Assembly (NCBI GenBank): GCA_023151275.1
Contig: JAKLJI010000003.1
Location: forward strand, 82,357-146,356
DNA from: Bacteroidia bacterium
Lineage (GTDB): Bacteria > Bacteroidota > Bacteroidia > UKL13-3
Reading direction: 5' to 3'
Length of the DNA: 64,000 nt
Of this stretch, positions 13,496 through 27,688 are shown piece after piece. Each line of letters begins with the position of its first letter. Position 1 is the stretch's first letter. The notes beneath the pieces are model-generated. The model was not told the origin of the DNA. It saw only the letters and a list, made by a program, of their open reading frames with translations, and made no database searches. The position numbers and the translations under genes are program-made.

Positions 13496-15598
13496 CTGAT
13501 GAACGAATACCTTCGAACACCCATAGAATACCTGAAAGGAGTAGGCCCAACGCGCGCCGAACTTCTTAAAAAGGATTTGGAGGTATTTACCTTTCACGAC
13601 CTTTTGTTTCATTTCCCCTATCGGCATATCGACCGAAGCCGGATTTATACAGTAAAGGAAATAGATGGCAGTCAGAGTTTTCTTCAGCTAAAGGGAACAA
13701 TTTCTAATTTACGGACCTTGACCAGCGGAAAAAGTCAGCGTTTGACGGCAGAATTTTTTGACGGGACAGGGGTATTGGAACTTGTATGGTTTCAGGGCTT
13801 GAAATGGGTTAGGGAAAGCCTTAAACCCAACAAAACCTATCTTATTTTTGGAAAACCAAGTGAGTTCAACGGTAGCTTTAACATGGTCCATCCCTCCTTA
13901 GAAGATCCAGAGGAGTTGCAAGCCAAGAAGTATGCGCATATTATGCCCTTATACAATTGCAGCGAAAAAATGAAGGCAAGAGGATTGGATAGCCGGCAGC
14001 TCATGAAGATGATGCATAGCTTGCTCAATGATCCCCGATTTGAGCTGGAAGAAAATCTGCCCGAAGATATTCGTTCCCGGTACAAATTTCCATCACGAAA
14101 AGAGGCCTTTATTTCAATTCATTTTCCTGCCGACTTTGGGAGTTTGCAGCAAGCAACCCAACGTTTAAAATTTGAAGAACTTTTCTTCATTCAACTGAGG
14201 TTGTTGCGGTATAAAATGAAACGAACACAAGTGGTAAATGGAATCCGTTTGGAGAAAATTGGTGATGCATTTAATACCTTCTATTCAAGCTACCTGCCCT
14301 TTGAACTTACTCAAGCTCAAAAACGGGTTCTGAAGGAAATTCGGGGCGATGTTAAACGCGGCATTCAAATGAATCGTCTGGTGCAAGGTGATGTTGGTAG
14401 TGGCAAAACAGTAGTTGCTTTGATGAGTATGCTTATGGCAATTGACAACTCGTATCAGGCTTGTATGATGGCACCAACTGAGATTCTTGCCCAACAGCAT
14501 TTTAAAACCATTCGCGGACTATTAAAGGACATGCCCGTTGAAACAGCACTATTAACGGGCAATACCAGCGCAAAAGAACGCAAGAAAATACATGCCGAAT
14601 TGGAAAGTGGTCAACTACAAATTCTTGTGGGTACTCATGCCTTGATTGAGGACAAAGTAAAGTTTGCCAATTTGGGCTTGGCCATTGTTGATGAACAACA
14701 TCGTTTTGGGGTTGAACAACGTGCACGACTGTGGCAAAAAAACAAATATCCGCCTCATGTTCTGGTAATGACGGCAACTCCTATTCCTCGCACTTTGGCA
14801 ATGACCCTATACGGCGACCTTGACACCTCGGCCATTGACGAATTGCCTGCCGGAAGAAAACCCATTCAAACCGTTCATCGATTTGACTCAAGCCGCCTGC
14901 AAATGTTTGGTTTTATTAGGCAACAAATTGAGTTGGGCAGACAAGTTTACATTGTTTATCCGTTGATTGAAGAATCGGAAAAGCTAAGCTATAAAAGTTT
15001 GGTTGAAGGGTATGAAAGTATATGTCGCGAGTTTCCTGCACCCAAGTATGCGGTTAGCATGGTACATGGCAAACTGAAGCCGGCAGACAAGGAGTTTGAG
15101 ATGAAACGCTTTGTAAAAGGTGAAACTCAAATCATGGTTGCCACCACCGTTATTGAAGTTGGAGTGAACGTTCCTAATGCAAGTGTAATGGTAATTGAGA
15201 GTGCCGAAAAATTTGGATTATCTCAACTCCATCAATTGCGCGGAAGGGTTGGACGAGGTGCAGACCAATCCTATTGCATTTTAATGAGCGGAAATGAATT
15301 GAGTGCTGATGCACGATTGCGATTAAAAACCATGGTAGAAACCAATGATGGTTTTAAGATAGCAGAAGCAGATTTGAAATTACGTGGACCGGGAGAACTG
15401 GAAGGTAAAGCGCAAAGCGGAGCCCTCGACCTAAAAATTGCAAGCATTTCGGAAGATGCTGGATTGATAGAATTAGCGCGAAATGAGGCTGGAAAAATTT
15501 TAAACAATGACCCAAATCTTGAATTGGATGTGAATAAATCGCTACAACTTTACTTCAACCTATACCAACAAACCGCAAAATGGGGCAGAATATCCTGA
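13496..15598 (+). CDS. recG: ATP-dependent DNA helicase RecG
   Basis: N-terminal TPIEYLKGVGP wedge region, Walker A GDVGSGKT, DEQHRFGV (DEQH), and helicase C motifs QLHQLRGRVGRG. Confidence 0.9.
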   Translation: MMNEYLRTPIEYLKGVGPTRAELLKKDLEVFTFHDLLFHFPYRHIDRSRIYTVKEIDGSQSFLQLKGTISNLRTLTSGKSQRLTAEFFDGTGVLELVWFQGLKWVRESLKPNKTYLIFGKPSEFNGSFNMVHPSLEDPEELQAKKYAHIMPLYNCSEKMKARGLDSRQLMKMMHSLLNDPRFELEENLPEDIRSRYKFPSRKEAFISIHFPADFGSLQQATQRLKFEELFFIQLRLLRYKMKRTQVVNGIRLEKIGDAFNTFYSSYLPFELTQAQKRVLKEIRGDVKRGIQMNRLVQGDVGSGKTVVALMSMLMAIDNSYQACMMAPTEILAQQHFKTIRGLLKDMPVETALLTGNTSAKERKKIHAELESGQLQILVGTHALIEDKVKFANLGLAIVDEQHRFGVEQRARLWQKNKYPPHVLVMTATPIPRTLAMTLYGDLDTSAIDELPAGRKPIQTVHRFDSSRLQMFGFIRQQIELGRQVYIVYPLIEESEKLSYKSLVEGYESICREFPAPKYAVSMVHGKLKPADKEFEMKRFVKGETQIMVATTVIEVGVNVPNASVMVIESAEKFGLSQLHQLRGRVGRGADQSYCILMSGNELSADARLRLKTMVETNDGFKIAEADLKLRGPGELEGKAQSGALDLKIASISEDAGLIELARNEAGKILNNDPNLELDVNKSLQLYFNLYQQTAKWGRIS

Positions 15599-15664
15599 GT
15601 TAATAGCAATTGGCGGAAAAGCAGGCATTTTTAAGCTTCTTGTTAATTTACAAACCATTATGGT

Positions 15665-16201
15665 TTGTATTTTGCCAGCTGTATGCCAACAGCAAAATAC
15701 ATACTTATTCTTTGCATTCCTGACAGTATTGGTTCGGGTATTGAACGCTGTAGGCAGGAGCTAAAAAAGCTTAGTGAACGAGCCAATCAACTTCCTGCAC
15801 ATCTTGAAATTACCCCTGAATTTTCCTGGAATGAAAAGGAAGAGTACTTATTGGTTCACAAAATCAAATCTTGTGTCCAATCTTGTTTTTCGCACTCCAT
15901 TGAATTAGGCGATCCCTATTTAGACAAATCGAACCAGCTTATTGCAATTAGCTACAAGAACGACCCGCAGCTGGAGCAATACAGAAGTTTATTCAAGGAA
16001 TTGTTTACTCAGGAAAAAATGCCTGAGCCATACCCTGGCTTTATTGTTGGCAAACAAATTCGCGAACAGCATTTTATTAAGGCCATGAACAGGGCAAAAG
16101 AAATGGACTGTAGCCTAAGTTTTTGGGGCGATAAATTAAGCTTATACAAAGAAGAAAATGGAACAGAATGGTCTTGCCGTTATGTGTTTGATTTAGATTA
16201 A
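15665..16201 (+). CDS. Hypothetical protein (no recognisable family)
   Basis: Intact 178-aa ORF in an otherwise tightly packed region, ending in a terminator hairpin; no motif recognised. The real start is possibly MPTAKY at 15686. Confidence 0.35.
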   Translation: MYFASCMPTAKYILILCIPDSIGSGIERCRQELKKLSERANQLPAHLEITPEFSWNEKEEYLLVHKIKSCVQSCFSHSIELGDPYLDKSNQLIAISYKNDPQLEQYRSLFKELFTQEKMPEPYPGFIVGKQIREQHFIKAMNRAKEMDCSLSFWGDKLSLYKEENGTEWSCRYVFDLD

Positions 16202-16231
16202 AAAAGCCGGCCCTTTTCAGAACCGGCTTAC
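16201..16231. terminator. Rho-independent terminator, mainly serving minus-strand acs
   Basis: AAGCCGG-loop-CCGGCTT stem. On the minus strand it reads GCCGG...CCGGC followed by TTTTT, directly after the acs stop. Confidence 0.5.
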
Positions 16232-16250
16232 ATTTATTATTACGCCTAAA

Positions 16251-18176
16251 CTATCTAATTTCTTCTGCACCTTGTTTGATTGCATCCACAACTGTTGGGT
16301 CGATCAGTGTTGAAGTGTCGCCCAGATTTGATGTATCACCTTCTGCAATTTTTCGTAGAATACGTCGCATGATTTTTCCTGAACGGGTTTTGGGCAAAGC
16401 CTTAACAACCTGAATGCGGTCGGGTCTGGCAAATGGACCAATAATTCCGGTTACATGGCTCTTCACCTCTGCACATAATTCTTCATAAGAGTGGTGCTCT
16501 CTATCGCAAATAACAAAAGCCCAAATGCCCTGACCTTTGATATCATGCGGATAACCAACCACTGCGCTTTCAATTACATAACCGTGTTCGTTAATAGCAT
16601 CCTCCACCTCACCTGTTCCAATGCGGTGTCCTGAAACATTAATCACATCATCTACCCTACCGGTTATACGGATATAGCCATCTTCATCACGCTTGCAACC
16701 ATCACCTGTGAAATACTTACCCGGGTAGGTACTGAAGTAATTCAGTTTAAATCGTTCGTGGTCACCATACACTGTGCGGGCCATTCCCGGCCAAGGGAAC
16801 TTGATGCACAAATTACCCTCAACACCATTTCCTTCGATTTCAGTACCTTTTTCATCAACAATTGCCAATTGAACTCCCGGCAATGGAAGTGTAGCAAATG
16901 CCGGCTTCAATTTGGTGATACCTGCAAGGGGTGAAATCATAATTCCTCCGGTTTCTGTTTGCCACCAAGTATCAACTATTGGACATTCTCCCCTACCAGC
17001 GTTTTCGTGGTACCAATGCCAGGCCTCTTCGTTGATTGGTTCTCCAACAGAACCTAATACCTTCAGCGAAGAAAGGTCTTTGCCTTCGAAAGGCTCTGTA
17101 CCAAAAACCTCCAACGAACGAATGGCAGTTGGTGCTGTATAGAAGATGGCAACCTTATGCTTTTCGATTAAACTCCAAAAACGTCCCGGATCGGGATAAC
17201 TTGGTATACCCTCAAACATAAGCGTGGTGGCACCATTCAACAATGGACCATACACGATATAACTATGCCCGGTAACCCAACCAATATCAGCGGTACAACA
17301 AAAAACCTCTTTATCCTGGTATTGGAATACATTCTTAAAAGTATAGGCTGAATAAACCATATAACCCGCGGTGGTATGCAATACGCCTTTTGGCTTTCCG
17401 GTTGAACCCGAGGTGTATAAAATAAACAGAGGGTCTTCGCTTTCCATGGATGCAGGTTGATGAACAGCAGAAGCGCCTTCCATCAAGGTATTCCAATCAA
17501 AATCGCGACCAGGCTGCATATTCATGGCAAAGCCTTTGTGGTTGTAAACAATACAACTGCGAATGCCCGGAGATTTCTCCATGGCTTCATCCGCAATTTG
17601 TTTCAAATCTATTTTCTTTTCGCCGCGAATCATACCATCTGCAGTAATCAGCAAACTGCAATCGGCGTCATTGATTCTATCTGCTAAGGATTGTGAAGAA
17701 AAGCCCGCAAATACCACTGAGTGAATGGCTCCAATACGAGCACAGGCAAGCATGGCAACCGCAGCCTCCGGAATCATGGGCATATAAATACAAACCCTAT
17801 CACCTTTCTTTACTCCCTGTTGTTCCAATACGTTTGAGAATTGGTTAACCAGTTTGGAAAGTTCGCGGTATGTTAAATTTCTATACTTATCCTGGGGATT
17901 ATTGGGTTCCCAGATAATGGCAATCTGATCACCACGGTCTTCCAGGTGACGGTCGATGCAATTTTCCGAAATATTCAAGCGAGCTCCACTGAACCAGCTT
18001 ACTTCAGGGGTATTAAAATCCCAGCTTAGCACCTTGTCCCACGGCTTGTGCCACTTAAAAGAATCTGCTATTCCGGCCCAAAAGGCTTCGGGATTAGAAA
18101 CGCTTTCCTGATAAGCAGCCTGGTACTCATCAAAACTCTTTAATTGAGGTAACATAGTGGTAAGGTCTAAGGTCAT
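16251..18176 (-). CDS. acs: Acetyl-CoA synthetase (AMP-forming)
   Basis: AMP-binding signature YTSGSTGKPKGV, ~640 aa, Acs-like N-terminal SFDEYQAAYQESVSNPEAFW and C-terminal KTRSGKIMRR. The track start at 18203 is a GTG; ATG at 18176 preferred. Confidence 0.9.
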   Translation of the reverse strand: MTLDLTTMLPQLKSFDEYQAAYQESVSNPEAFWAGIADSFKWHKPWDKVLSWDFNTPEVSWFSGARLNISENCIDRHLEDRGDQIAIIWEPNNPQDKYRNLTYRELSKLVNQFSNVLEQQGVKKGDRVCIYMPMIPEAAVAMLACARIGAIHSVVFAGFSSQSLADRINDADCSLLITADGMIRGEKKIDLKQIADEAMEKSPGIRSCIVYNHKGFAMNMQPGRDFDWNTLMEGASAVHQPASMESEDPLFILYTSGSTGKPKGVLHTTAGYMVYSAYTFKNVFQYQDKEVFCCTADIGWVTGHSYIVYGPLLNGATTLMFEGIPSYPDPGRFWSLIEKHKVAIFYTAPTAIRSLEVFGTEPFEGKDLSSLKVLGSVGEPINEEAWHWYHENAGRGECPIVDTWWQTETGGIMISPLAGITKLKPAFATLPLPGVQLAIVDEKGTEIEGNGVEGNLCIKFPWPGMARTVYGDHERFKLNYFSTYPGKYFTGDGCKRDEDGYIRITGRVDDVINVSGHRIGTGEVEDAINEHGYVIESAVVGYPHDIKGQGIWAFVICDREHHSYEELCAEVKSHVTGIIGPFARPDRIQVVKALPKTRSGKIMRRILRKIAEGDTSNLGDTSTLIDPTVVDAIKQGAEEIR

Positions 18177-18325
18177 TGTTGATTTGTCAATCAAAGTAAA
18201 CACCTTCCCTTTTGAAATCCATTTGTTTTTATGCTAAATAGCCATAGCTAAGTAAAAATTGAATTAAGCTCACAAATAATTAACTGAAGCATTACGCTTC
18301 AAGCACTCAAACGAAAAACAAAGCT

Positions 18326-18345
18326 TTGACAATTGCAGTTGTCAA
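18326..18345. promoter_or_regulatory. Perfect 7-6-7 palindrome TTGACAA-TTGCAG-TTGTCAA, candidate operator upstream of acs
   Basis: Read directly from the sequence; lies in the 203-nt acs/response-regulator intergenic region, ~150 nt upstream of the acs ATG. Confidence 0.4.
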
Positions 18346-18406
18346 GCAATCAATGGCAATCAAACTGCGAAAATTAGACTTTTAAAAACGAGAAAATGTA
18401 AGCATA

Positions 18407-18781
18407 TCAGGCTTGCAACATATCGTTTACCTTTTGCATGAGGGCTCGGGTTGAATATGGCTTTGTCATGTAATAATCAGCCCCAAACTCCATCCCTTTC
18501 TGAATATCTGCATCTTTTGATTTGGCCGATAAGAATATCACCTTGCAAGCCTTGTGTTCAACTGAATTCTTGATAAAACTGCAAATTTGATACCCATCAA
18601 TATCCGGCATCATGATATCTAAAACGGCCAAAGCCGGATTGTGCTTTTTAACGATCTCCATGGCCTCCGAACCATTTCTGGCAATAAAAACTTCGTATCC
18701 ACTTTTTCTCATCAAAAATTCCAAAGAGAGAAGGATATTAGGTTCATCATCAGCCACGAGTATCTTTTTTGCTCCATTCAT
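18407..18781 (-). CDS. Single-domain response regulator (CheY-like receiver only)
   Basis: ILVADDEPN, phospho-acceptor LDIMMPDIDG and conserved Lys in KVIFLSAKS. The protein is 124 aa with no output domain. Confidence 0.8.
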   Translation of the reverse strand: MNGAKKILVADDEPNILLSLEFLMRKSGYEVFIARNGSEAMEIVKKHNPALAVLDIMMPDIDGYQICSFIKNSVEHKACKVIFLSAKSKDADIQKGMEFGADYYMTKPYSTRALMQKVNDMLQA

Positions 18782-18798
18782 GAATTGGTCCTTTCAGC

Positions 18799-21492
18799 TT
18801 AATCTGTTATGAACAAGGTGATGACAAAGGTAGCACCTTTTCCCGGTTCACTCAAAACCTCAATGGTACCTCCATGCAATTCAACAATCTTTCTGCAAAT
18901 TGCCAGGCCCAAACCACTTCCTTTGGGCTTGCGAATGGTTTGATTTCTGGCTTGAAAAAACTTATCAAATATTAATTCCTGGTACTCCGGCTCTATGCCT
19001 CTTCCGGTGTCTTTCACAGACAAAACAACCTGATCGTCGCGACGCAAGGCACTTACTTGTATCAAACCACCTGTCTCCGTAAACTTAACGGCATTTGAAA
19101 GTAAATTAATGAGCACCTGCATCATTTTATCCTTATCCAAAATCAGGTTGAGTTGCTCGGGGTCCACATCAACCAACAGATTCAGCTTTTTCTCATCGGC
19201 TAAACTTTTGATACTGTTTATTGATTCCTGAATAAGTTCTTTTACATAAACTTCCTCCAGAAGCAGCTTTTGTTTTCCCGAATCGTATTTCTCCAAATCG
19301 AGCACCTGAGATATCAGGCGGGAAAGGCGTTCTGTTTCTTTGTTGATGATTTGAAGGTAGTGTTGTCTATCATCCAATTCAAGCTCAGGATTATCAAACA
19401 AAATCTCCGAAAATGCACGGATTGAAGTAATTGGCGTTCGCAATTCATGGGTAACTGTTGCCAGAAAATCATCCTTCAATTCATCCATTTCCTTCAGCCT
19501 ATGATTGGCAAGTTCTAACTGGCTTTTGGCTCGTTTCAACTCCCGGTTAAGCAACATCAATTGCTGTGATTCTCTGAGAATATCCATCAACTCCGCCAAT
19601 TTTACTTCCTCTTCTTTTACCACCGAAGCCACCATTATCCGCGCGGATGCCGAGCCAATAATTCCGGAAAGCACACGCTCTACATAGGCTACCAATTTGG
19701 GGTCGGCTTTCTCCTGCTCTGAACTTATTTGATTGCGTATTGAAAAATTACGAATGGCGTTCCGACTGCGTTGTTCCCCAAAGAAATTGGCCAAGAGGGA
19801 TTCCATATCAGGGATACTGGCTTGCCCCTTCCAAACCGGAGCGGCATCCATGATTTTTTCATACTTAAAAATATTCACAAAAATCTCGGCCTGATTTTGT
19901 TCTTTATCATCGGCTTTGGTATTGAGAGAAACCAGTACATACAAACCTAAATTGAAAAGCATGCTGAAGAAAAAAGCATGCGTGATTGGGCTGAAACCAG
20001 TAAAACCAAACAGTTGATTTGGCTTGAGCAATTCAATTCCCCATGGACCATATTGAACGAAATCAGATTGAATAATTCCAGATCCCACAAGGAAAGGTAA
20101 AACCAAGGTGTAAAACCAAATGGCGAATCCAGCAATCAAGCCACTTAAAGCACCCTTTTTATTTCCTTTTTTCCAGTACAAGCCACCAATAATGGCAGGT
20201 GCGAGTTGGGCTATGGAAACAAATGAAATCAAGCCCACAGAAACTAGGCTGTAATACTTACTTATGTAGTGATAATAGGCGTAAGCAACTCCCAAAATAA
20301 CCAAAATCCCCAAACGTCTTGAATTGAGCAAGAATCGACTCAAATCAAACAAGGGATTCTTTATTCGATAATCGGAACCTAGAAGCACCGGCATTGCAAT
20401 GTGATTGGAGAACATGGTGCTTAATGCTATGGTATCAACAATTATCATGCTTGTAGCAGCTGCAAAGCCACCAATAAAAACCAATAAGGCAAGTGCCTTT
20501 TGATTCATTTGCATGGGAATATCCAGGATAAAATAATCGCCATTTACACCGTTTCCGGGGAACATCATGCTACCTGAAAGCGCAATGGGCAGAACAAAAA
20601 TGTTTATCAGTAACAAGTACAAAGGAAAGAGCCAAGTGGCGTGTTTAAGGTGGCTTTCATCTGTATTTTCAACTACTGCCAGTTGAAATTGACGGGGCAA
20701 TAAAGTTGCTGCAATTCCTGAAAGCAAGGCAATCCATAACCAATCGCTGTAGCCAAACTGTTGTTGAACTACAAACAAGTTACGCAGTTCAGGAAAAACA
20801 AAGGCCCGGGAAAAGACATCGCCAAAGCCATCAAACAAAATCCAGGTGACATAAACCCCAACCGCAAGAAATGCGAACAATTTGATGATGGATTCAAAAG
20901 CAACCGCCACAACCATTCCGGTATGCTGCTCGTTGCTTTCTACCTTGCGTGTGCTGAAAACAATGGAAAATAATGCCATGCAAAGGGCCACAATTAAACC
21001 GGTATCTCCAATCAAACCGTAGGAACCCGATTTCATTTTAAAATCAGGACTTATGATTAAATCAAAGGAATCGGAAATGGCTTTTAGTTGCAGGCTGATG
21101 TTGGGAATAACACCCAAAAAACAGAGAACTGTAATGATGCTCGCCAAACTTAGGTTTTTTCCATAGCGCGATGAAATGAAGTCGGCGATGGTAGTGATGC
21201 GCTGGGTTTTGCAAATGCGGATAATTTTGCGCAATAAAAATAGCCACAAAGGCGAAATCAAAGTTGGACCAATATAAACGGCGAGAAAGCCCAAACCTTC
21301 CTTACTGGCTTTCCCTACGCTGCCGTAAAATGTCCAAGCCGTGCAGAACACAGCAAGTGAAAGGGCATAAACAACTGGCCCTTGGAAAAAGCTTCGCTTT
21401 TTTTGCTTGCTACCTTCTACCCGATAGGCAATGAAAAACAGCAAAGCCAGATAAATCAACGAAAACAAAACGATTAACCAGGAGCTGAGCAT
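18799..21492 (-). CDS. Sensor histidine kinase with N-terminal sodium:solute symporter (SSS/SLC5) domain (CbrA/CrbS-like, non-hybrid)
   Basis: About 13 TM helices of SSS type over ~520 aa, then a coiled linker, the H-box THELRTPITSIRAFSEIL, and HATPase N/G boxes LLSNAVKF...GSGLGLAICRKIVELHGG. No C-terminal receiver domain. Confidence 0.75.
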   Translation of the reverse strand: MLSSWLIVLFSLIYLALLFFIAYRVEGSKQKKRSFFQGPVVYALSLAVFCTAWTFYGSVGKASKEGLGFLAVYIGPTLISPLWLFLLRKIIRICKTQRITTIADFISSRYGKNLSLASIITVLCFLGVIPNISLQLKAISDSFDLIISPDFKMKSGSYGLIGDTGLIVALCMALFSIVFSTRKVESNEQHTGMVVAVAFESIIKLFAFLAVGVYVTWILFDGFGDVFSRAFVFPELRNLFVVQQQFGYSDWLWIALLSGIAATLLPRQFQLAVVENTDESHLKHATWLFPLYLLLINIFVLPIALSGSMMFPGNGVNGDYFILDIPMQMNQKALALLVFIGGFAAATSMIIVDTIALSTMFSNHIAMPVLLGSDYRIKNPLFDLSRFLLNSRRLGILVILGVAYAYYHYISKYYSLVSVGLISFVSIAQLAPAIIGGLYWKKGNKKGALSGLIAGFAIWFYTLVLPFLVGSGIIQSDFVQYGPWGIELLKPNQLFGFTGFSPITHAFFFSMLFNLGLYVLVSLNTKADDKEQNQAEIFVNIFKYEKIMDAAPVWKGQASIPDMESLLANFFGEQRSRNAIRNFSIRNQISSEQEKADPKLVAYVERVLSGIIGSASARIMVASVVKEEEVKLAELMDILRESQQLMLLNRELKRAKSQLELANHRLKEMDELKDDFLATVTHELRTPITSIRAFSEILFDNPELELDDRQHYLQIINKETERLSRLISQVLDLEKYDSGKQKLLLEEVYVKELIQESINSIKSLADEKKLNLLVDVDPEQLNLILDKDKMMQVLINLLSNAVKFTETGGLIQVSALRRDDQVVLSVKDTGRGIEPEYQELIFDKFFQARNQTIRKPKGSGLGLAICRKIVELHGGTIEVLSEPGKGATFVITLFITD

Positions 21493-21493
21493 G

Positions 21494-21751
21494 CTATTTT
21501 TTATTTACAATTCGGTAGACTAAACCAATAAAAAACACCCATACCGAAAACACATAAATGTAAAGCACAGGTAAGCCTCCCAAGAGTTTGGCTTTATCTG
21601 CAATGCTCAACAAAGGGTAGTTCAGCAAAACGAAAAAAAAGAATGCCAGGAAACTTAATTTGGTTGATTTCATTTTCTGATTCACAGCTCCAAGATACGG
21701 ATTAACCAAAAAAGAATCGAGCTTTTGCTTTGCAAAAGCTCGATTCAACAA
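21494..21751 (-). CDS. Small 2-TM membrane protein, DUF4212-like 'symporter small subunit', translationally coupled to the SSS-kinase
   Basis: 85 aa with two hydrophobic helices; its stop lies 1 nt before the kinase ATG, matching the typical mini-ORF upstream of SSS proteins. Confidence 0.45.
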   Translation of the reverse strand: MLNRAFAKQKLDSFLVNPYLGAVNQKMKSTKLSFLAFFFFVLLNYPLLSIADKAKLLGGLPVLYIYVFSVWVFFIGLVYRIVNKK

Positions 21752-21850
21752 ATTAGAACGTATCTCAAAAAAGAATTTGGCTGCGGAGTCTTTAGTTCAA
21801 CCTATTTCACTTTTAAAAAGTGGAACCAATTCAAACTCCAAGTAGCCGCG

Positions 21851-22129
21851 CTATTCTATTTCTCTATCGTATTCTCCTTTTAAGGAATAATAACCAAAGA
21901 TGATTAACCCAAAGGCGATTGGAAGGAAAATTCCGATAATAATTCCCCATTGCAATTGGATATTCAGCTTAGCCGCTTCTGCTGTTGATCGTGCCAACTC
22001 ATCTACAGCTTGTTCAATGCGTAGATTGGAGGCTGAGATTTTATCAGCGGCTTGAACAAACATAAATATTGCTGCTGCAGGACCTAATAAAATCCAGATA
22101 ATTCCTAATGCTCTGCGTATAGTATTCAT
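21851..22129 (-). CDS. Small membrane protein (2 TM flanking a helical segment), unknown function
   Basis: 92-aa ORF packed between the MFS gene and the DUF4212-like gene on the same strand. Confidence 0.35.
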   Translation of the reverse strand: MNTIRRALGIIWILLGPAAAIFMFVQAADKISASNLRIEQAVDELARSTAEAAKLNIQLQWGIIIGIFLPIAFGLIIFGYYSLKGEYDREIE

Positions 22130-22149
22130 AAGTTTTCTATTTAATCGTT

Positions 22150-23883
22150 TTAATTGTGGATATACTCGTTCTCATCATCCATTACATCTTCATCTATGTG
22201 ATTAGTGAGGTATAAAGTACCAATAACAAGACAAACGGCTGCAATACCAATTGGATACCAAAGTCCGGCCAATGGCGAACCGTTTGGCATAGCAGGAGAT
22301 TTGGTGTACTCAATAATTAAAGTAGAAAGGAATGGAACCAAACCACCAAAAACACCATTGCCAACATGATAAGGCAATGACATTGAGGTGTATCGAATAC
22401 GGGTTGGGAACAATTCAACCAAAAACGCAGCTATTGGACCATAAACCATTGTCACATAAACGATTTGGATGAACACCAGGAAAATCATGGTCCAAAACGT
22501 GTCTTTTCCAACTTTTTTCTCAACTCCAATTGCAGCCTTTTCTCCCTGATAATTCACCAACAAATTCAAGGTATCCACTTTAGCGTTTTGCAGGGCTTCT
22601 GTGGCCTGACTCTTCATCGTATAATAGGTTGGCAAACTTCCACTATCCGCACCTAAAGTAGTGCAAGCAAATACAACCTGAGCCGATTTATCTGTACTTA
22701 GATTAAGAGGTTCTGCAAGGTACAGGGTATCTGTGGTAGTGTATTTAAAAACTGCTCCGTCTGAATAGCTTGTATCTTTTTTGGAAACAATAAACAACTT
22801 CTGATTGCTTTTACTATCGGGAATAGCAGTAACAGAACGTATACCAGACTCTTCCAAAACAAGCTCATTTGACTTCAATGCGGGATTGGTATAATCAATA
22901 AACTTCTGGTAAATGGAACGATAGCTCAAAATTCCCAATAACATGCCTAGCATCATTATCCATTTGCGACCAACTCTGTCGCTCAATGCACCAAAAAGAA
23001 TAAAGAATGGAGTACCTAAAACAATGGCCCAAAGAATGATTGTCCTCGACTGTTCAAAATCAACCTTACAGGTGTTCTCAATGAAGGACTGCGCATAAAA
23101 CTGACCGGTGTACCAAATTACACCCTGTCCCATTACAGCCCCAAACAAGGCCAGTAAAACCATTTTTAAATTGGCTTTGTGGCTAAAACTTTCTTTCAAT
23201 GGATTTTTAGATGTTTTGCCTTCCTTCTTCAATTTTGCAAACAAGGGCGACTCACTCATTTTCATCCGGATATAAATAGACACGATAACCAACAAAATAG
23301 AAACCCAGAAAGGAACGCGCCAACCCCAATTGTTAAACTGGTCGATACCCAATTGATTTCTTGTAAATAAAATTACTCCAAGCGATAAGAAAAGTCCCAG
23401 GGTTGCAGTAGTTTGAATCCAGGAGGTGAAATAGCCACGTCGTTTTGCTGGAGCATGTTCGGCCACATAGGTTGCGGCCCCACCATATTCACCACCCAAG
23501 GCCAAACCTTGCACCAATCTTAAAAAGAGAACAATAAGCGGAGCAGCAACCCCAATTGTTTTATAGCCGGGTACCAAACCAATTGCAAAGGTTGAGCCTC
23601 CCATCAAAACAAGTGTCAACAAGAAAGTGAATTTCCTTCCCAGCAAATCGCCCAAGCGACCAAAAACGAGTGCTCCAAATGGCCGAACAATAAAGCCAGC
23701 TGCAAATATGGCTAGGGTTGACAACAGTGCTGCAGTTCCTTGCTCTTCCGGAAAGAATTGCTTGGAAATTAGGGTTGCCAGACTTCCAAAAATGTAGAAG
23801 TCGTACCATTCAATCAAGGTTCCTACGGAGGAGGCACCGATTACCTGGTAAATGGACGAGGGTTTGTCTTCGTTACTTTTCAT
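22150..23883 (-). CDS. MFS transporter, metabolite:H+ symporter (MHS; ProP/KgtP-like) family with ~110-aa hydrophilic central insertion
   Basis: MHS hallmark GTLIEWYDFYIFGSLA...FFP plus 12 TM; there is an unusually long soluble loop between TM6 and TM7. Confidence 0.7.
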   Translation of the reverse strand: MKSNEDKPSSIYQVIGASSVGTLIEWYDFYIFGSLATLISKQFFPEEQGTAALLSTLAIFAAGFIVRPFGALVFGRLGDLLGRKFTFLLTLVLMGGSTFAIGLVPGYKTIGVAAPLIVLFLRLVQGLALGGEYGGAATYVAEHAPAKRRGYFTSWIQTTATLGLFLSLGVILFTRNQLGIDQFNNWGWRVPFWVSILLVIVSIYIRMKMSESPLFAKLKKEGKTSKNPLKESFSHKANLKMVLLALFGAVMGQGVIWYTGQFYAQSFIENTCKVDFEQSRTIILWAIVLGTPFFILFGALSDRVGRKWIMMLGMLLGILSYRSIYQKFIDYTNPALKSNELVLEESGIRSVTAIPDSKSNQKLFIVSKKDTSYSDGAVFKYTTTDTLYLAEPLNLSTDKSAQVVFACTTLGADSGSLPTYYTMKSQATEALQNAKVDTLNLLVNYQGEKAAIGVEKKVGKDTFWTMIFLVFIQIVYVTMVYGPIAAFLVELFPTRIRYTSMSLPYHVGNGVFGGLVPFLSTLIIEYTKSPAMPNGSPLAGLWYPIGIAAVCLVIGTLYLTNHIDEDVMDDENEYIHN

Positions 23884-23898
23884 ATAGTTAAGTGTTGA

Positions 23899-25329
23899 TT
23901 ATAGGAAAATTTGAAATTGCAGCATCAACTCTCCTTTACGCTCGGAGCTGCGCATGCGGGTAGCTATTTCATAGGTTGGTCTGGAAGAATACTGGAGGGT
24001 AAATTTGGAATGGTGTCCATCCAGAAAAAAGTTTGCACCAATATCGTAATAGCTTCCTGATTCTTTAAGCGCTTCAAACTTTTTTAAGGCAAGCGATGCT
24101 ATTGGCTGAATGCGCATTTTCTTGCTAATGGTTTTTGGCAATAAAAGTCCGGCCTGGGTGTACCATATTGTGCCGGTACCCATCATGGCTCTAGCATTTC
24201 CACCACCTTCAAAAACGCGAGCTGAACTTGGAAGGTCTGTATTGGGTAATCCTTCATTCATGATTCCAATATTGCGGATATAGTTTGGTCCGAAATCATA
24301 AGCATAGAGCACAGAATAGGCTGTAACTGCCATATTTTTCTCCTTATCACCGAAAGGCAAATCGGCAAACACATCAGCTGCAAATAAATTAATTGCATGC
24401 TTTTTCAGTTTACCTGCAGCATCTTTTGATTGTGTAGCATCAGCCTGAGAATAAAAGCCGGCACCCAGATTTAAAATTCTTTTTGTACCTATATAGGTGC
24501 CTGTTCTGAAGGGTAGCAATGCCGATTCCTTCTCCAGGAAATTGTATTCAAAATAGCCTCCAAATCCCGCTTTGGAATTACCATTGTTTTCTACGGCAAC
24601 TTCTCTGGTTTCATTAAAGGCGGCAACAAAACGGGCAGTATCGGCGGCAAGCGTAGTTGCAAATGGTTTATTCACATGCATTTGATAGCGTAGTTTTCCG
24701 GCATACCCTTTTACAAACAGCCCATATTGGCGACCAAATTGGTCGGTATTTTCAATCAAAGGCCAATTAAAAATTGGAGCATCAATCATTAAAAAATTGA
24801 GCGTGCTGGCAGATGTCATGCGTGATAAGCCATGCATATAATGCAAGCCCGCACCAAGAGAAAGTGAGTAGTTATTTTTAGCTTTAGTTTCCGGGTTGAT
24901 TTCCGGAATAATGGCATATTCATTCAAGGCATCGTGAAAAAACAGTTGAGGCTTTTTGCCTTGGCCATATCCTCCGGTTCCTGCAGTACCAGAACCACCA
25001 CCATTTAAAAAGGTCTGGTTGTTAATTCCGACATGAGTAAGAATCATGTACCGAGGAGAAATTTGAGCAATAGCTAAAAAGCGAAGACGGCGACCACCAA
25101 TATCAAAGGTTTTGTCTTCGGAAACACCATTCACTAAAGTTCCCGGATTGTTTTCGATATACCTGGCCCAAATTTGGTTCCAAAAAATAAATCGAATGTA
25201 TTTGCTCTTATCTTCATTGATTCCAATTTTCAAACCGGAACCATAATCAGCTGAGCCCTGAGAGCGGCCGGGGGAGCTGATAAACAGCAAGATTGCTGAT
25301 AATACTAAAAAGGGGTAATGTTTTCTCAT
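23899..25329 (-). CDS. Putative outer-membrane beta-barrel porin
   Basis: Signal peptide, alternating amphipathic strands, Gly-rich loops and a C-terminal aromatic/hydrophobic end ...LMLQFQIFL. Confidence 0.5.
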   Translation of the reverse strand: MRKHYPFLVLSAILLFISSPGRSQGSADYGSGLKIGINEDKSKYIRFIFWNQIWARYIENNPGTLVNGVSEDKTFDIGGRRLRFLAIAQISPRYMILTHVGINNQTFLNGGGSGTAGTGGYGQGKKPQLFFHDALNEYAIIPEINPETKAKNNYSLSLGAGLHYMHGLSRMTSASTLNFLMIDAPIFNWPLIENTDQFGRQYGLFVKGYAGKLRYQMHVNKPFATTLAADTARFVAAFNETREVAVENNGNSKAGFGGYFEYNFLEKESALLPFRTGTYIGTKRILNLGAGFYSQADATQSKDAAGKLKKHAINLFAADVFADLPFGDKEKNMAVTAYSVLYAYDFGPNYIRNIGIMNEGLPNTDLPSSARVFEGGGNARAMMGTGTIWYTQAGLLLPKTISKKMRIQPIASLALKKFEALKESGSYYDIGANFFLDGHHSKFTLQYSSRPTYEIATRMRSSERKGELMLQFQIFL

Positions 25330-25334
25330 ACCGA

Positions 25335-25352
25335 TGGGTTATTCGTTAACCC
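25335..25352. promoter_or_regulatory. Inverted repeat TGGGTTA-N4-TAACCCA immediately upstream of porin start codon
   Basis: Read from the sequence; sits 6 nt upstream of the ATG at 25329, overlapping the RBS region. Confidence 0.25.
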
Positions 25353-25434
25353 AAAGTTTGAGAAAGAAAATTAAGATAAATAAAATCGTGCAGTTGAATG
25401 TTAAATTGATGTATTCATTAACGAAAGTCAAGGA

Positions 25435-25857
25435 CTAATCCCTGAATCGTTCCCATTTTATCATCATAAACTTATCGCCCAATTCTGTAATAACAGAACC
25501 TGCACCCTTTAGATTATCCTTGTTCTTCATATATTCAACAAGCTCTGCATGATTCAGGATTTTGTAGGTTGGATGGTACTGCGAATTTTCAGGCCGCTTC
25601 AACCCATATTGTTTCACCCAGTTCATTACCGAAACATGGCTTGTTCCGAGGAGACGTTCAATTTCCCGATAACTCAATCCTTCAATATAAAGCTGAAGAG
25701 CTTTGGTGACATAATAATTATCGATTCGCTTACCAAGTTTATTTACAGTGAAAAAGTAAGCACAGTTCTTGCATTTGTAACGTTGCCGCTCTTTCAGAAT
25801 TCCACTTTTGATGACGCTGAAACTTTGACATTTTGGACATTTCACATCGGTTGACAT
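25435..25857 (-). CDS. IS1 InsA / IS1595-type Zn-ribbon plus HTH protein, standalone (no adjacent DDE transposase)
   Basis: CPKCQS...RYKCKNC is a transposase-type zinc ribbon, followed by the InsA-like HTH LSYREIERLLGTSHVSVMNWVK and ~50 extra C-terminal residues. No InsB or DDE ORF follows. Confidence 0.5.
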   Translation of the reverse strand: MSTDVKCPKCQSFSVIKSGILKERQRYKCKNCAYFFTVNKLGKRIDNYYVTKALQLYIEGLSYREIERLLGTSHVSVMNWVKQYGLKRPENSQYHPTYKILNHAELVEYMKNKDNLKGAGSVITELGDKFMMIKWERFRD

Positions 25858-25958
25858 AGGAGTTTATATAAACGATATACCAAGTAAGCATAAATATAGC
25901 TAATTAGCAAGAAAAAAAATGCACAGCTTGAGAGACTCAACAAAAGAGAATCAGCTTA

Positions 25959-27131
25959 TTAACGCGAGTCCTTTGTTGAATGCGGATATTGGAGATAGAA
26001 CAAAATGCTAAGGCTCCAACTCAACAAGCCATAGGCTATTCTATCGAGTAAGCGATTGAAAAAGCTCGATGTTTTCAAAAATTCTTCCAGTCTTATCTCT
26101 ATTGCGTCATTTTCTAAAACAGATTGAATGAGTGCATCTGCTTGCCGAACAACTTTTTCGTTTTTACATAACACATTGCATTCAACCGAACCAAAATCAC
26201 TCAAATAATTCAGGTTATACGAACCAACACAAAGCTCAGTATGATCAACAAGCACAAGCTTACCATGTAAAACAGTGGGCTTGTACTCAAAAAGACGAAC
26301 CCCTGCTTTCAGTAAATCGGGATAAAAATGGCGGATTGCTCTTTTCATCAAACCAATATCAGACCTCGCTCCCAGAAGGAGTTTTATTTCCACTCCCCTA
26401 TCCGCAGCTTGTTTCAATTTGCGTTTCAAACCAGCACCCGGAATAAAATAACTGGCTACAATAGTTAGCTCTTTATTTGCCCGAACAATGCTTCTTCTGT
26501 AGTAAAAAGAGATGGCAAGTTTTGAACGAAACCAATTGTTCTCAAGCACTCTAAAATCAGGACTCCCCTGAGCAATAGGATGTGCTGATATCAAGTTTTT
26601 TGGAGGCTTTTTATTCCAAGGATAATACCTTCTTAGGACACGAACCGTATCAAGTACTGCTTGACCATGGTAAATCAAGGCAAAATCAAGCCAAGGCATT
26701 TGTTTGGCATTTCCTTGATAATGGTCAGACCAATTAATTCCGCTGCACGAGGCCCAATTTCTATCTACAACAATCAATTTATGGTGCAAACGCAGACCCA
26801 TTTTAAATTCAACAAGCTGACTTAATGGAGCATACCACGAAAGTTTAATCCCCGCATTTTCAAGATTTCTTATCCAGAATTCAGAAAGGTCTTTTGATCC
26901 GTAGGCATCCAAAAGCAGAAAAACCTGAACACCCCTTTTAGCTGCATTAATTAAGGCATTCATCATTTGAATACCGGTTGCATCTGATTCTAAAATATAC
27001 AACTGCACCAATACTTCCACCTGAGCATTCTCAATTGCAGCCCTCAGGTGTTGAAAGTATTCAGGTCCACCGGTAAAAAATTCAACCGCATTGGCATGCC
27101 TGAACGGAAAGCTGTTGCGGAATCGTTCCAT
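25959..27131 (-). CDS. Phospholipase D-family protein / cardiolipin synthase-like (two HKD motifs)
   Basis: HxK(x)4D motifs HHKLIVVD and HGKLVLVD. Start trimmed to MERFRNSF (27131) so it abuts rather than overlaps the yciH stop. Confidence 0.75.
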   Translation of the reverse strand: MERFRNSFPFRHANAVEFFTGGPEYFQHLRAAIENAQVEVLVQLYILESDATGIQMMNALINAAKRGVQVFLLLDAYGSKDLSEFWIRNLENAGIKLSWYAPLSQLVEFKMGLRLHHKLIVVDRNWASCSGINWSDHYQGNAKQMPWLDFALIYHGQAVLDTVRVLRRYYPWNKKPPKNLISAHPIAQGSPDFRVLENNWFRSKLAISFYYRRSIVRANKELTIVASYFIPGAGLKRKLKQAADRGVEIKLLLGARSDIGLMKRAIRHFYPDLLKAGVRLFEYKPTVLHGKLVLVDHTELCVGSYNLNYLSDFGSVECNVLCKNEKVVRQADALIQSVLENDAIEIRLEEFLKTSSFFNRLLDRIAYGLLSWSLSILFYLQYPHSTKDSR

Positions 27132-27132
27132 A

Positions 27133-27474
27133 TTATCCGCCGGCTTTTTTAACCGAATAGGATTCCTTTTGGAGGTATGCGAGCAATTTATCTCTGAAGT
27201 CGCCTTGAATAAGGATTTCGCCATCCTTGGCACTTCCTCCAACACCACAATGTTTTTTGCATAAGGAGCCAAGCTCTTGCAATGCAGAATCGGGGCCCAC
27301 AAAACCAGTAATTCTTGAAACAAGCTTGCCTCCTCCTTTTCTATCCAGAAAGATTTTCAGCCGTTGTTGGTTGGGAGGCAATAACTCCTGCTCTTCTGCA
27401 TTATTCTCCTGGTATTCAAAAAAGGTATCCGTAGAATAAACTACTCCTTCCCGCTTTTTATTCTTGTTGCTCAT
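27133..27474 (-). CDS. yciH: Translation initiation factor SUI1/YciH family
   Basis: [12 protein letters not shown]...[26 protein letters not shown] matches the SUI1 fold signature. Confidence 0.7.
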
Positions 27475-27688
27475 GATCAAAACAAAAGTACACATCAAAA
27501 CGGAATCCTGCTGTTGAAATATTTAGGAATAAATGCCCTAAACAGCCCAAATAGCTAGCCGGAAAAGGATATTGAGGCGAGCAGAACTTCTAAATTGGGA
27601 AGCTTTCTATTTGTAGCAGTTTAATTTTCTTTACCCCTAAGAAACCTGACAGAAGTCAATACACCAACCGACATTTGATGGTTTTACG

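Follow-up and report, generated by a model that had tools for sequence, protein, structure and literature searches.

The 64-kb window analysed here (the whole stretch of 64,000 nucleotides from contig JAKLJI010000003.1 of a Bacteroidia bacterium) carries a block of genes, all on the minus strand, that begins with a 140-aa zinc-ribbon and helix-turn-helix (HTH) protein. A porin, a symporter, a small membrane protein, a two-helix peptide, a sensor kinase and a receiver follow it, and the block ends with acs, the gene for acetate-CoA ligase (Table 1). We believe the block is best explained as an acetate scavenging locus under two layers of regulation that are linked through the receiver, and we give this explanation as a whole about an even chance (roughly 0.5). 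An earlier note on this DNA saw no output route from the kinase and receiver to acs. It overlooked both a conserved DNA-binding protein (25435-25857) and a conserved operator before acs, and the open reading frame (ORF) that it missed encodes not a membrane protein but a relative of the IS1 zinc-ribbon/HTH module. This protein is probably the best candidate for the missing transcriptional output, because the motif that stands before its gene and before acs matches the inverted repeats (IRs) of IS1 elements.

The proposed mechanism is easily stated. The locus would serve the scavenging of acetate, or of short-chain monocarboxylates, in a form typical of Bacteroidota. The first layer would be an SLC5-STAC transceptor kinase made together with a translationally coupled 59-aa two-helix peptide; the anatomy of this pair is seen directly, and its function is our supposition. 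The peptide probably packs on the SLC5 domain, by analogy with CbrX on CbrA, and the kinase would monitor carboxylate availability or flux and phosphorylate the adjacent receiver. The second layer would be the 140-aa protein, which would descend from the DNA-binding module of an IS1-family transposase and have lost its mobility long ago. Homology and site conservation suggest that it binds IR-derived operators of the form TATAnnnWWTTAGCA and controls acs. Tandem sites overlap the promoter region of its own gene, which suggests autoregulation like that of InsA. Some 60-100 nt before acs stands a single site of fixed orientation, and many relatives have a further site at the porin operon. Most simply, the 140-aa gene and its upstream sites would be the left end of an IS1 element that was domesticated, with IR-like sites recruited before acs and often before the porin operon. 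The least secure step is a speculative one: the phosphorylated receiver may modulate the 140-aa protein, perhaps through its invariant C-terminal module. Such a link would supply the DNA-binding output that is absent from the two-component pair.

The evidence is largely comparative. A genome scan centred on the kinase gave 80 loci, and several of the counts below are given per 81 loci. The nearest of these loci, L002, has a kinase 72% identical to that of the window.

The 140-aa protein consists of a CPxC...CxxC zinc ribbon, an HTH and a near-invariant C-terminal module, YHPTYKI...GAGxIITELGDKFMLIKWERF. Its cysteines C7, C10, C29 and C32 are invariant and its AlphaFold2 (AF2) model has a mean pLDDT of 83.5. 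The protein matches NF033558 with 76 bits over profile positions 1-117 of 199, which is below the cut-off of 100, and NF050000 with 37.6 bits. It is 37-42% identical to genuine IS1-family transposases found on plasmids, and 42% identical to an IS1 transposase of Tenacibaculum, and it ends without a DDE domain. More than 2200 homologues are 137-142 aa long, and the best 120 of them are 68-96% identical to the window protein. In 27 of the 80 kinase-centred loci the block begins with this gene. When homologues of the 140-aa protein were taken as the starting point instead, both look-ups led back to the same block. In Bacteroidota we have seen the gene only together with the kinase block (these 27 loci and the two reciprocal look-ups). 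Synonymous divergence (dS) is saturated in nearly all pairs of the gene while nonsynonymous divergence (dN) is 0.04-0.26, so the gene is under strong purifying selection. From these comparisons the protein appears to be a derivative of the IS1 transposase N-terminus that is kept as a host gene, not as a mobile element. Where a homologue has a source name, the label is mostly 'transposase', and more than 2000 database entries named 'transposase' or 'IS1 family transposase' are probably mis-annotated.

The operator motif tells the same story from the DNA side. We built a position weight matrix (PWM) from the motif copies upstream of 140-aa genes and counted sites at thresholds of 12 or 14 bits. 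Only three sites in the whole window reach 12 bits, two upstream of the 140-aa gene and one upstream of acs. A count of the motif in the window taken alone is not significant (3 against 1.8 expected), and so the weight of the motif evidence lies in its specificity of position across genomes. Among the related loci with a 140-aa gene, the gene is preceded by a site of at least 12 bits in 25 of 26 and by a tandem pair, usually 19 nt apart, in 21 of 26. Loci with the gene hold 61 sites of at least 14 bits in 564 kb, nearly all of them at three intergenic positions: upstream of the 140-aa gene, upstream of acs, and between the 140-aa gene and the porin gene. Loci with no 140-aa gene in range hold 6 such sites in 891 kb, and five of the six are at equivalent positions in Bacteroidota. 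Where acs has its own upstream region, 12 loci carry one or more sites of at least 12 bits, every one of them pointing toward acs and none away from it. Between the end of the proximal site and the codon equivalent to M17 of the listed acs ORF there are 61-104 nt, in both gene arrangements. At one Cytophagales locus, L060, tandem operator sites stand upstream of the porin gene though the fetched stretch has no 140-aa gene.

The same matrix recognises the ends of genuine mobile elements. In an IS1-family element of Tenacibaculum it scores 22.2 bits on the left IR, GGCATTGCTAATTTAATATAG, about 30 nt upstream of the transposase ATG, and 9.1 bits on the right IR. An IS1-family element of Methylobacter has GGCATTGTTAATT.A.T.T.G at both ends, and its right end scores 17.0 bits. 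These matches mean that the locus operator, TTGCTAAWTnnnTATA when read from the other strand, corresponds to the inner part of such IRs. The copies at the locus are internal sites and not element ends. InsA needs its zinc finger and HTH to bind IRs specifically (PMC12428005, citing Ohta 2004 and Zerbib 1990). In many relatives the -7 box of Bacteroidota (TAnnTTTG) spans the junction of the tandem sites, and this suggests an InsA-like autorepression.

Two other readings of the motif were tried and rejected. It is not a directional promoter: with respect to acs it always faces the same way, but before the 140-aa gene it faces backwards, and there the copies of the window would fire antisense into a phospholipase D (PLD)-like gene. 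Its TTGC is not a sigma-54 element, since position -24 has no GG element. The PLD-like gene (25959-27323) has its 3' end toward these reversed operator copies, which point into it.

It could be argued that the 140-aa ORF and the motifs are nothing but a decaying IS1 remnant, consisting of a left IR, a truncated transposase and a right IR, that has no host function, and that acs is regulated in some other way. The argument has some appeal because the protein aligns to the N-terminal part of the IS1 transposase and lacks the DDE domain, and because at many loci the motif copies flank the gene in inverted orientation (two upstream and one before the porin), much as the ends of an insertion sequence would. 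A decaying element, however, would not be expected to keep an intact ORF across all the homologues just described, nor to be 96% identical in protein and only 80% in DNA between the window and L002 with dS saturated. The gene also has the same syntenic place in four orders and occurs once in the window, and the acs operator travels with acs at a constant orientation and distance. We consider the remnant explanation very improbable, and hold to a host regulator with its operators.

The other layer begins with the kinase. A phmmer search against solved structures gave one outstanding match, of kinase residues 7-537 to 10ed_A (E 5e-68), which settles in its favour the earlier note's assignment of the N-terminal domain to the SSS/SLC5 transporters. 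In the entry 10ED, CbrA of Pseudomonas putida was solved by cryo-EM over its SLC5-STAC part (PMC13488458). The Pfam SSF profile gave no match to the kinase at E<=0.1. The AF2 model, made with 60 homologues, has a mean pLDDT of 79.9 and 13 transmembrane (TM) helices; after these come short helices, four helices at 560-624, and one continuous helix at 632-700 that runs into the DHp domain. Because this unbroken helix enters DHp and leaves no room for one, the kinase has no PAS domain. Pfam likewise gave no PAS or Response_reg match in the kinase, and the protein ends after its CA domain. HisKA (E 1.7e-18) and HATPase_c (E 3.9e-31) are present, with the H-box THELRTP, whose H682 is invariant in the 60 homologues. 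The domain scan and the model thus agree with what the earlier note had read from the translation, a transceptor kinase of the CbrA/CrbS class without a PAS domain and without a fused receiver.

The kinase also probably has a STAC domain, to judge from profile comparison and the predicted fold. A HMMER profile of the linker did not retrieve STAC from the PDB. Using hhalign with a CbrA STAC alignment that we built from metagenome loci, residues 563-624 of the linker align with STAC (P 5.6e-4, 30% probability), the two have LSGxxGxSxA in common, and the aligned residues are exactly the four helices of the AF2 model. Compared with characterised transporters, the SLC5 part gives its highest figure with SMCT1/SLC5A8 (29.3), then SiaT (28.3), SGLT1 (26.8), CHT1 (26.7), DUR3 (25.1) and vSGLT (24.8). 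SMCT1 as the top match fits acetate or a close monocarboxylate as substrate, with a small margin over the other SLC5 members.

This kinase is not a rarity. Its full-length relatives, of about 900 aa, number in the thousands, and the 80 loci have kinases 45-72% identical over their whole length. Within Bacteroidota they include Pontibacter, Spirosoma, Hymenobacter, Algoriphagus, Runella, Flavobacterium and Chitinophagaceae, and outside it Chloroflexota, Desulfobacterales, Acidimicrobiia and Alpha-, Beta- and Gammaproteobacteria. A Logan contig of 9.7 kb encodes the identical kinase, with its genes in the order seen in the window. Three metagenome-assembled genomes labelled Vulcanococcus (a cyanobacterium; L002), Proteobacteria (L024) and Roseobacteraceae (L072) carry the Bacteroidota-type block. 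Their contigs are Bacteroidota-type by the IS1-like gene or by Bacteroidota-level identity, and the labels are probably binning or labelling errors. In Flavobacterium kingsejongi CP020919.1 (L164:13946-16632) the kinase is called as two genes of 389 and 493 aa; it may be frameshifted or a pseudogene, or the sequence may be in error. The 140-aa gene, mini-ORF, receiver and acs are intact there, and a DDE transposase and a second acs follow.

Directly upstream of the kinase lies a mini-ORF. The earlier note described an 85-aa ORF (21494-21751) with its stop a single base (21493) before the ATG of the 897-aa ORF (18799-21492), and this geometry is correct. The TTG start of the listed ORF is probably spurious, because its first 26 codons run through an intrinsic terminator at 21714-21746, and the product is likely the 59 aa that begin at ATG 21673. 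It belongs to a family of unnamed two-TM peptides of about 60 aa, found in at least five phyla, that keeps the motifs LLN[YF]PLLS and G[IV]PxLYxYxFxxW across those phyla. A hidden Markov model of 20 members found 79 matches among 9426 six-frame ORFs. In 77 of 81 loci the kinase start has a family member beside it, and among the 9426 ORFs none turns up at an unrelated place, so the arrangement is far above chance. The commonest geometry is an 8-nt overlap between the mini-ORF stop and the kinase start (18 loci), then a 4-nt overlap and gaps of 1-15 nt. At L060 the mini-ORF and the kinase are separated by a 409-aa ORF (L060:8709-9938), and this may be a rearranged variant.

The mini-ORF was first named as a DUF4212 protein, and this assignment is wrong. 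Neither the window ORF nor any of 20 family members matches DUF4212 (PF13937/TIGR03647) even at E<=10, and genuine DUF4212 genes (E 2.4e-36) coexist as separate genes beside SSF transporters at mini-ORF loci L036, L039, L052 and L075. Pfam and NCBIfam scans of the window mini-ORF gave no match of any kind, and DUF3311, which matches 2 of the 20 members at E 0.07, is too weak to accept. By its placement the peptide is instead the positional counterpart of CbrX, a 58-aa protein of two helices; the cbrX and cbrA genes share 17 nt and are coupled in translation (PMC6591292). CbrX was seen bound to TM3/TM8 of the CbrA SLC5 domain (PMC13488458) and has been described only for Pseudomonadaceae (PMC6591292). 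The two peptides have the same size, the same topology and the same 15-residue spacing between two conserved prolines. The mini family has no sequence match in the PDB, where its profile did not retrieve even the CbrX chain, and against CbrX sequences that we recovered from metagenome loci hhalign gives a weak match (P 0.002, probability 13%).

The receiver is where the interpretations part. Its Response_reg domain spans all 124 aa from end to end with no other domain, as the earlier note had proposed for a receiver-only partner, and its active site is complete (D11, D12, D55, S85, K107). As a family defined by ORF clustering it is present in 49 of 81 loci, usually directly 3' of the kinase, across phyla. 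The 64-kb window contains no second receiver or kinase. No DNA-binding response regulator was found at any locus among the window proteins and selected neighbours that were scanned, most neighbouring ORFs being unscanned.

One possibility named in the earlier note is a phosphorelay to an unlinked regulator, and on this reading the receiver would be an intermediate, or a phosphate sink, before a DNA-binding response regulator. Single-domain receivers such as Spo0F do work as phosphorelay intermediates, so there is a precedent, and a complete phospho-acceptor pocket in a protein without an output domain is what one would expect of such an intermediate. Against it, neither these scans nor the recurrent families of the 81 loci produced an Hpt protein or second regulator, which is a weak negative given how many neighbouring ORFs were unscanned. 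The absence of another receiver or kinase from the window points the same way, and the locus-specific operator and co-located DNA-binding protein already account for transcriptional control. We think a phosphorelay quite unlikely, and prefer the 140-aa protein as the output.

A more serious challenge comes from outside Bacteroidota. In other phyla the mini-ORF, kinase and receiver are accompanied by a 719-aa exonuclease with PAS and RNase_T domains, a cNMP/CBS/DUF294 nucleotidyltransferase, a DUF4212 gene with an SSF transporter, and acs, with no DNA-binding regulator among them. Proteins with PAS and a C-terminal RNase_T-type exonuclease (700-780 aa) are near the kinase and receiver in 21 loci, usually directly downstream; L028, L033, L036, L039, L044, L048, L061, L062, L075, L077 and others of these are not Bacteroidota. 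The DUF294 gene is present in 26 loci. The P. fluorescens CrbS/R regulon includes a cAMP-binding/CBS/nucleotidyltransferase protein of the DUF294 architecture (PMC5715377). The exonuclease and DUF294 proteins might be the ancestral targets of the receiver.

These neighbours permit a different account of the whole system. The kinase and receiver could act post-transcriptionally or on targets other than DNA (an enzyme, a transporter, the PAS-exonuclease or the DUF294 protein), and the 140-aa protein could be a local regulator in its own right, whose C-terminal module answers to a metabolite. This account would allow for the fact that in some Bacteroidota no 140-aa gene lies near the kinase and receiver, and in a Foldseek search the only fold matched by the 140-aa model is that of Lrp/AsnC regulators, which join an HTH to a small ligand-binding alpha/beta domain. 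Those fold matches are not significant, however (E about 0.02, TM about 0.25). The 64-kb window has neither a DUF294 nor an exonuclease gene, and independence fits poorly with a 140-aa gene that we saw in Bacteroidota only beside the kinase block. We judge this account doubtful, though it is the rival we take most seriously, and we continue to favour the two linked layers.

The synteny of the block supports acetate as the subject of this regulation. As the earlier note expected, acs and the genes for carboxylate uptake from the outer membrane to the cytoplasm stay linked across Bacteroidota. The usual order there is the 140-aa gene (where present), porin, MFS or SSF transporter, DUF6814, mini-ORF, kinase, receiver and acs. 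In L016, L018, L019, L022, L047 and L071 acs is divergent and lies beside the 140-aa gene, and some loci have a second acs paralogue. An SSF transporter replaces the MFS protein in L004, and probably in L010 and L078 as well. The fetched stretch includes acs in 42 of 81 loci, and acs persists while the class of transporter varies (MFS, SSF, or DUF4212 with SSF). The transporter changes and acs stays, so the substrate would be acetate or a close monocarboxylate. The suggestion that acetate controls acs here rests on this synteny of acs and on the operator before it. At L002 a 502-aa protein with HTH_3 and Peptidase_M78 domains, IrrE-like, lies between the receiver and acs (L002:13387-14895); it is absent from the window. 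We take it to resemble the short-chain acyl-CoA regulators of the RamB/PrpR type.

Several observations weigh against the explanation we favour and should be stated together. The receiver is kept in Chloroflexota, Desulfobacterales and Proteobacteria that lack both the 140-aa protein and the motif. It follows that the ancestral target of the receiver cannot be the 140-aa protein; either its target is more general or the Bacteroidota rewired it. Within Bacteroidota, loci L012, L015, L040 and others have kinase and receiver with no 140-aa gene within 10 kb. In the window the site at the porin operon is degenerate, with 3.2 bits, and the mini-ORF/kinase operon has no site before it. The sensed ligand is deduced from gene neighbourhood, the STAC assignment comes from a weak profile match and predicted helices, and the homology of the mini-peptide with CbrX is unproven at the 13% probability given above. 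A bolder version of our proposal would have the IS1 DNA-binding module and IR exapted phylum-wide as an acetate transcription factor and its operator, the phosphorylated receiver docking on the C-terminal module so that this pair serves the two-component system as its output to DNA, and CbrX-like micro-subunits as a hitherto unnoticed part general to SLC5 sensor kinases across bacterial phyla. We offer this version only tentatively, as possible rather than probable.

The remaining features of the block bear less directly on these questions. The predicted terminator between the DUF6814 gene and the mini-ORF is the end of a porin-MFS-DUF6814 transcription unit, and it splits the block into at least two units. 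The earlier note placed acs after the receiver, which is right, across a 203-nt gap, which is not: the start is probably ATG 18155, because the orthologous ORF of L002 begins at the equivalent of M17, and from there the gap is about 251 nt. Its MHS-type transporter and small membrane protein, the latter a DUF6814 protein, are confirmed by profile, and its porin has a weak ExtI-porin match to recommend it. The TIGR00883 match of the MFS protein falls in two stretches, around an apparently soluble central-loop insertion of about 130-150 aa (approximately residues 330-470); homologues at related loci are 491-578 aa. The DUF6814 gene always comes after the MFS gene at related loci. The porin gene has no Pfam match and keeps its synteny in 23 loci. 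The PLD-like gene next upstream of the block, on the minus strand, encodes two PLDc_2 domains, is cardiolipin-synthase-like and is not syntenic in relatives. The spacer between receiver and acs contains a perfect palindrome, TTGACAA-N6-TTGTCAA (18326-18345), that is probably chance or strain-specific. We rejected it as a conserved or structured element, since it occurs in no other locus of 164 and its fold has a z of +0.8 against shuffles. An Rfam scan of 15500-27600 gave no match. A scan for sigma-70 promoters gave 13 matches against 27 expected, which is uninformative since the promoter elements of Bacteroidota differ.

Table 1. Features of the acs-kinase block, in positions of the 64-kb window
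Feature	Position	Strand	Evidence and remarks
Terminator downstream of acs	16204-16229		
acs, acetate-CoA ligase	16251..18203	-	TIGR02188 955 bits (cut-off 725); AMP-binding, ACAS_N and AMP-binding_C domains
Start of acs	18203 (GTG, listed ORF); 18155 (ATG, M17)	-	ATG is the probable true start
Operator-like site upstream of acs	18229..18248	-	GCTATGGCTATTTAGCATAA, core TATGGCTATTTAGCA; PWM 17.5 bits
Stand-alone receiver, 124 aa	18407..18781	-	Pfam Response_reg E 9e-28
Sensor histidine kinase (SLC5-STAC-DHp-CA; STAC probable), 897 aa	18799..21492	-	
Kinase sub-regions (approximate)	SLC5 19918-21492; STAC-like four-helix 19621-19815; HisKA 19276-19476; HATPase_c 18814-19137		
Mini-ORF, 59 aa (MKSTK...VNKK), two TM helices	21494..21673	-	Listed 85-aa TTG ORF reaches 21751
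Intrinsic terminator (predicted)	21705..21746	-	15-bp stem at 21714-21746, 7 GC pairs, T6
DUF6814 membrane protein, 92 aa	21851..22129	-	PF20664 E 4.5e-27
MHS-type MFS metabolite/H+ symporter, 577 aa	22150..23883	-	TIGR00883 361 bits; Sugar_tr and MFS_1 match too
Putative outer-membrane porin, 476 aa, signal peptide	23899..25329	-	Weak NCBIfam ExtI-porin match, E 2e-8
Zinc-ribbon, HTH and conserved C-terminal module, 140 aa	25435..25857	-	Candidate transcription factor
Two head-to-tail operator sites, 19 nt apart, upstream of 140-aa gene	25874..25912	+	GATATACCAAGTAAGCATAA 18.0 bits; AATATAGCTAATTAGCAAGA 23.2 bits

How does this locus compare with what is known? In the literature we searched, SLC5/STAC kinases have been studied genetically only in Proteobacteria, and there was no paper on the Bacteroidota system, the kinase subfamily, DUF6814 or an InsA-derived regulator. 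The closest functional parallels are CrbS/R of Vibrio, Pseudomonas and Sinorhizobium, which control acs and actP, and RpuS/R, which control mctP (PMC5715377, PMC9100948). Like the locus kinase, for which STAC is probable and the function supposed, these are SLC5/STAC kinases devoted to carboxylate utilisation, and DUF294 genes accompany the locus kinase family. The architecture is another matter. The hybrid kinase CrbS has a PAS domain and ends in a receiver, and the locus kinase has neither; CrbR is a LuxR-type DNA-binding regulator (PMC9100948) and the locus regulator is a bare receiver. The locus appears to belong functionally with the CrbS/R and RpuS/R class while having the architecture of neither CrbS nor CbrA.

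In its parts the locus is nearer to CbrX-CbrA/CbrB of Pseudomonas, where the kinase is SLC5-STAC-PAS-DHp-CA. Both kinases are non-hybrid, with homologous SLC5 domains and a STAC-like four-helix linker, and both have a translationally coupled two-helix peptide of about 58-59 aa directly upstream. They differ in that the locus kinase has no PAS domain and that its partner is a bare receiver where CbrB is an NtrC-type sigma-54 activator. The neighbourhoods differ as well, acs and carboxylate uptake here as against histidine use and carbon catabolite control for CbrA. The mini family spans at least five phyla where CbrX is confined to Pseudomonadaceae, and the sequence similarity of the two is not significant. 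DUF4212 (TIGR03647) is similar in that the gene of a small two-TM protein lies upstream of an SLC5/SSS-type domain, and different in that there is no profile match. The subfamily of SLC5-STAC-DHp-CA kinases with a bare receiver is uncharacterised, and together with its micro-subunit it should be moderately surprising to a specialist. The role of CbrX was left open in the 2026 CbrA structure paper, and the wider mini family gives a comparative handle on it.

The last comparison is with IS1 itself. The 140-aa protein and its IR-like operator offer a testable route to the control of acs in Bacteroidota, and the exaptation of a transposase and its IR would be a real surprise if true. To our knowledge, a transposase DNA-binding domain and its IR co-opted together as a regulator and operator pair would be a rare bacterial case. 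InsA and InsAB' bind IRs specifically and autorepress at the left IR. The locus shares with them the zinc ribbon and HTH at 37-42% identity, a motif that equals the inner IR, and sites upstream of the protein's own gene placed like the left IR. It differs from IS1 in having a protein of 140 aa with no DDE domain and no frameshifted insB, and in being single-copy, fixed in synteny across the phylum and under purifying selection. The C-terminal 50 residues are distinct from IS1 and near-invariant, and the locus has extra sites before the metabolic genes of the host.

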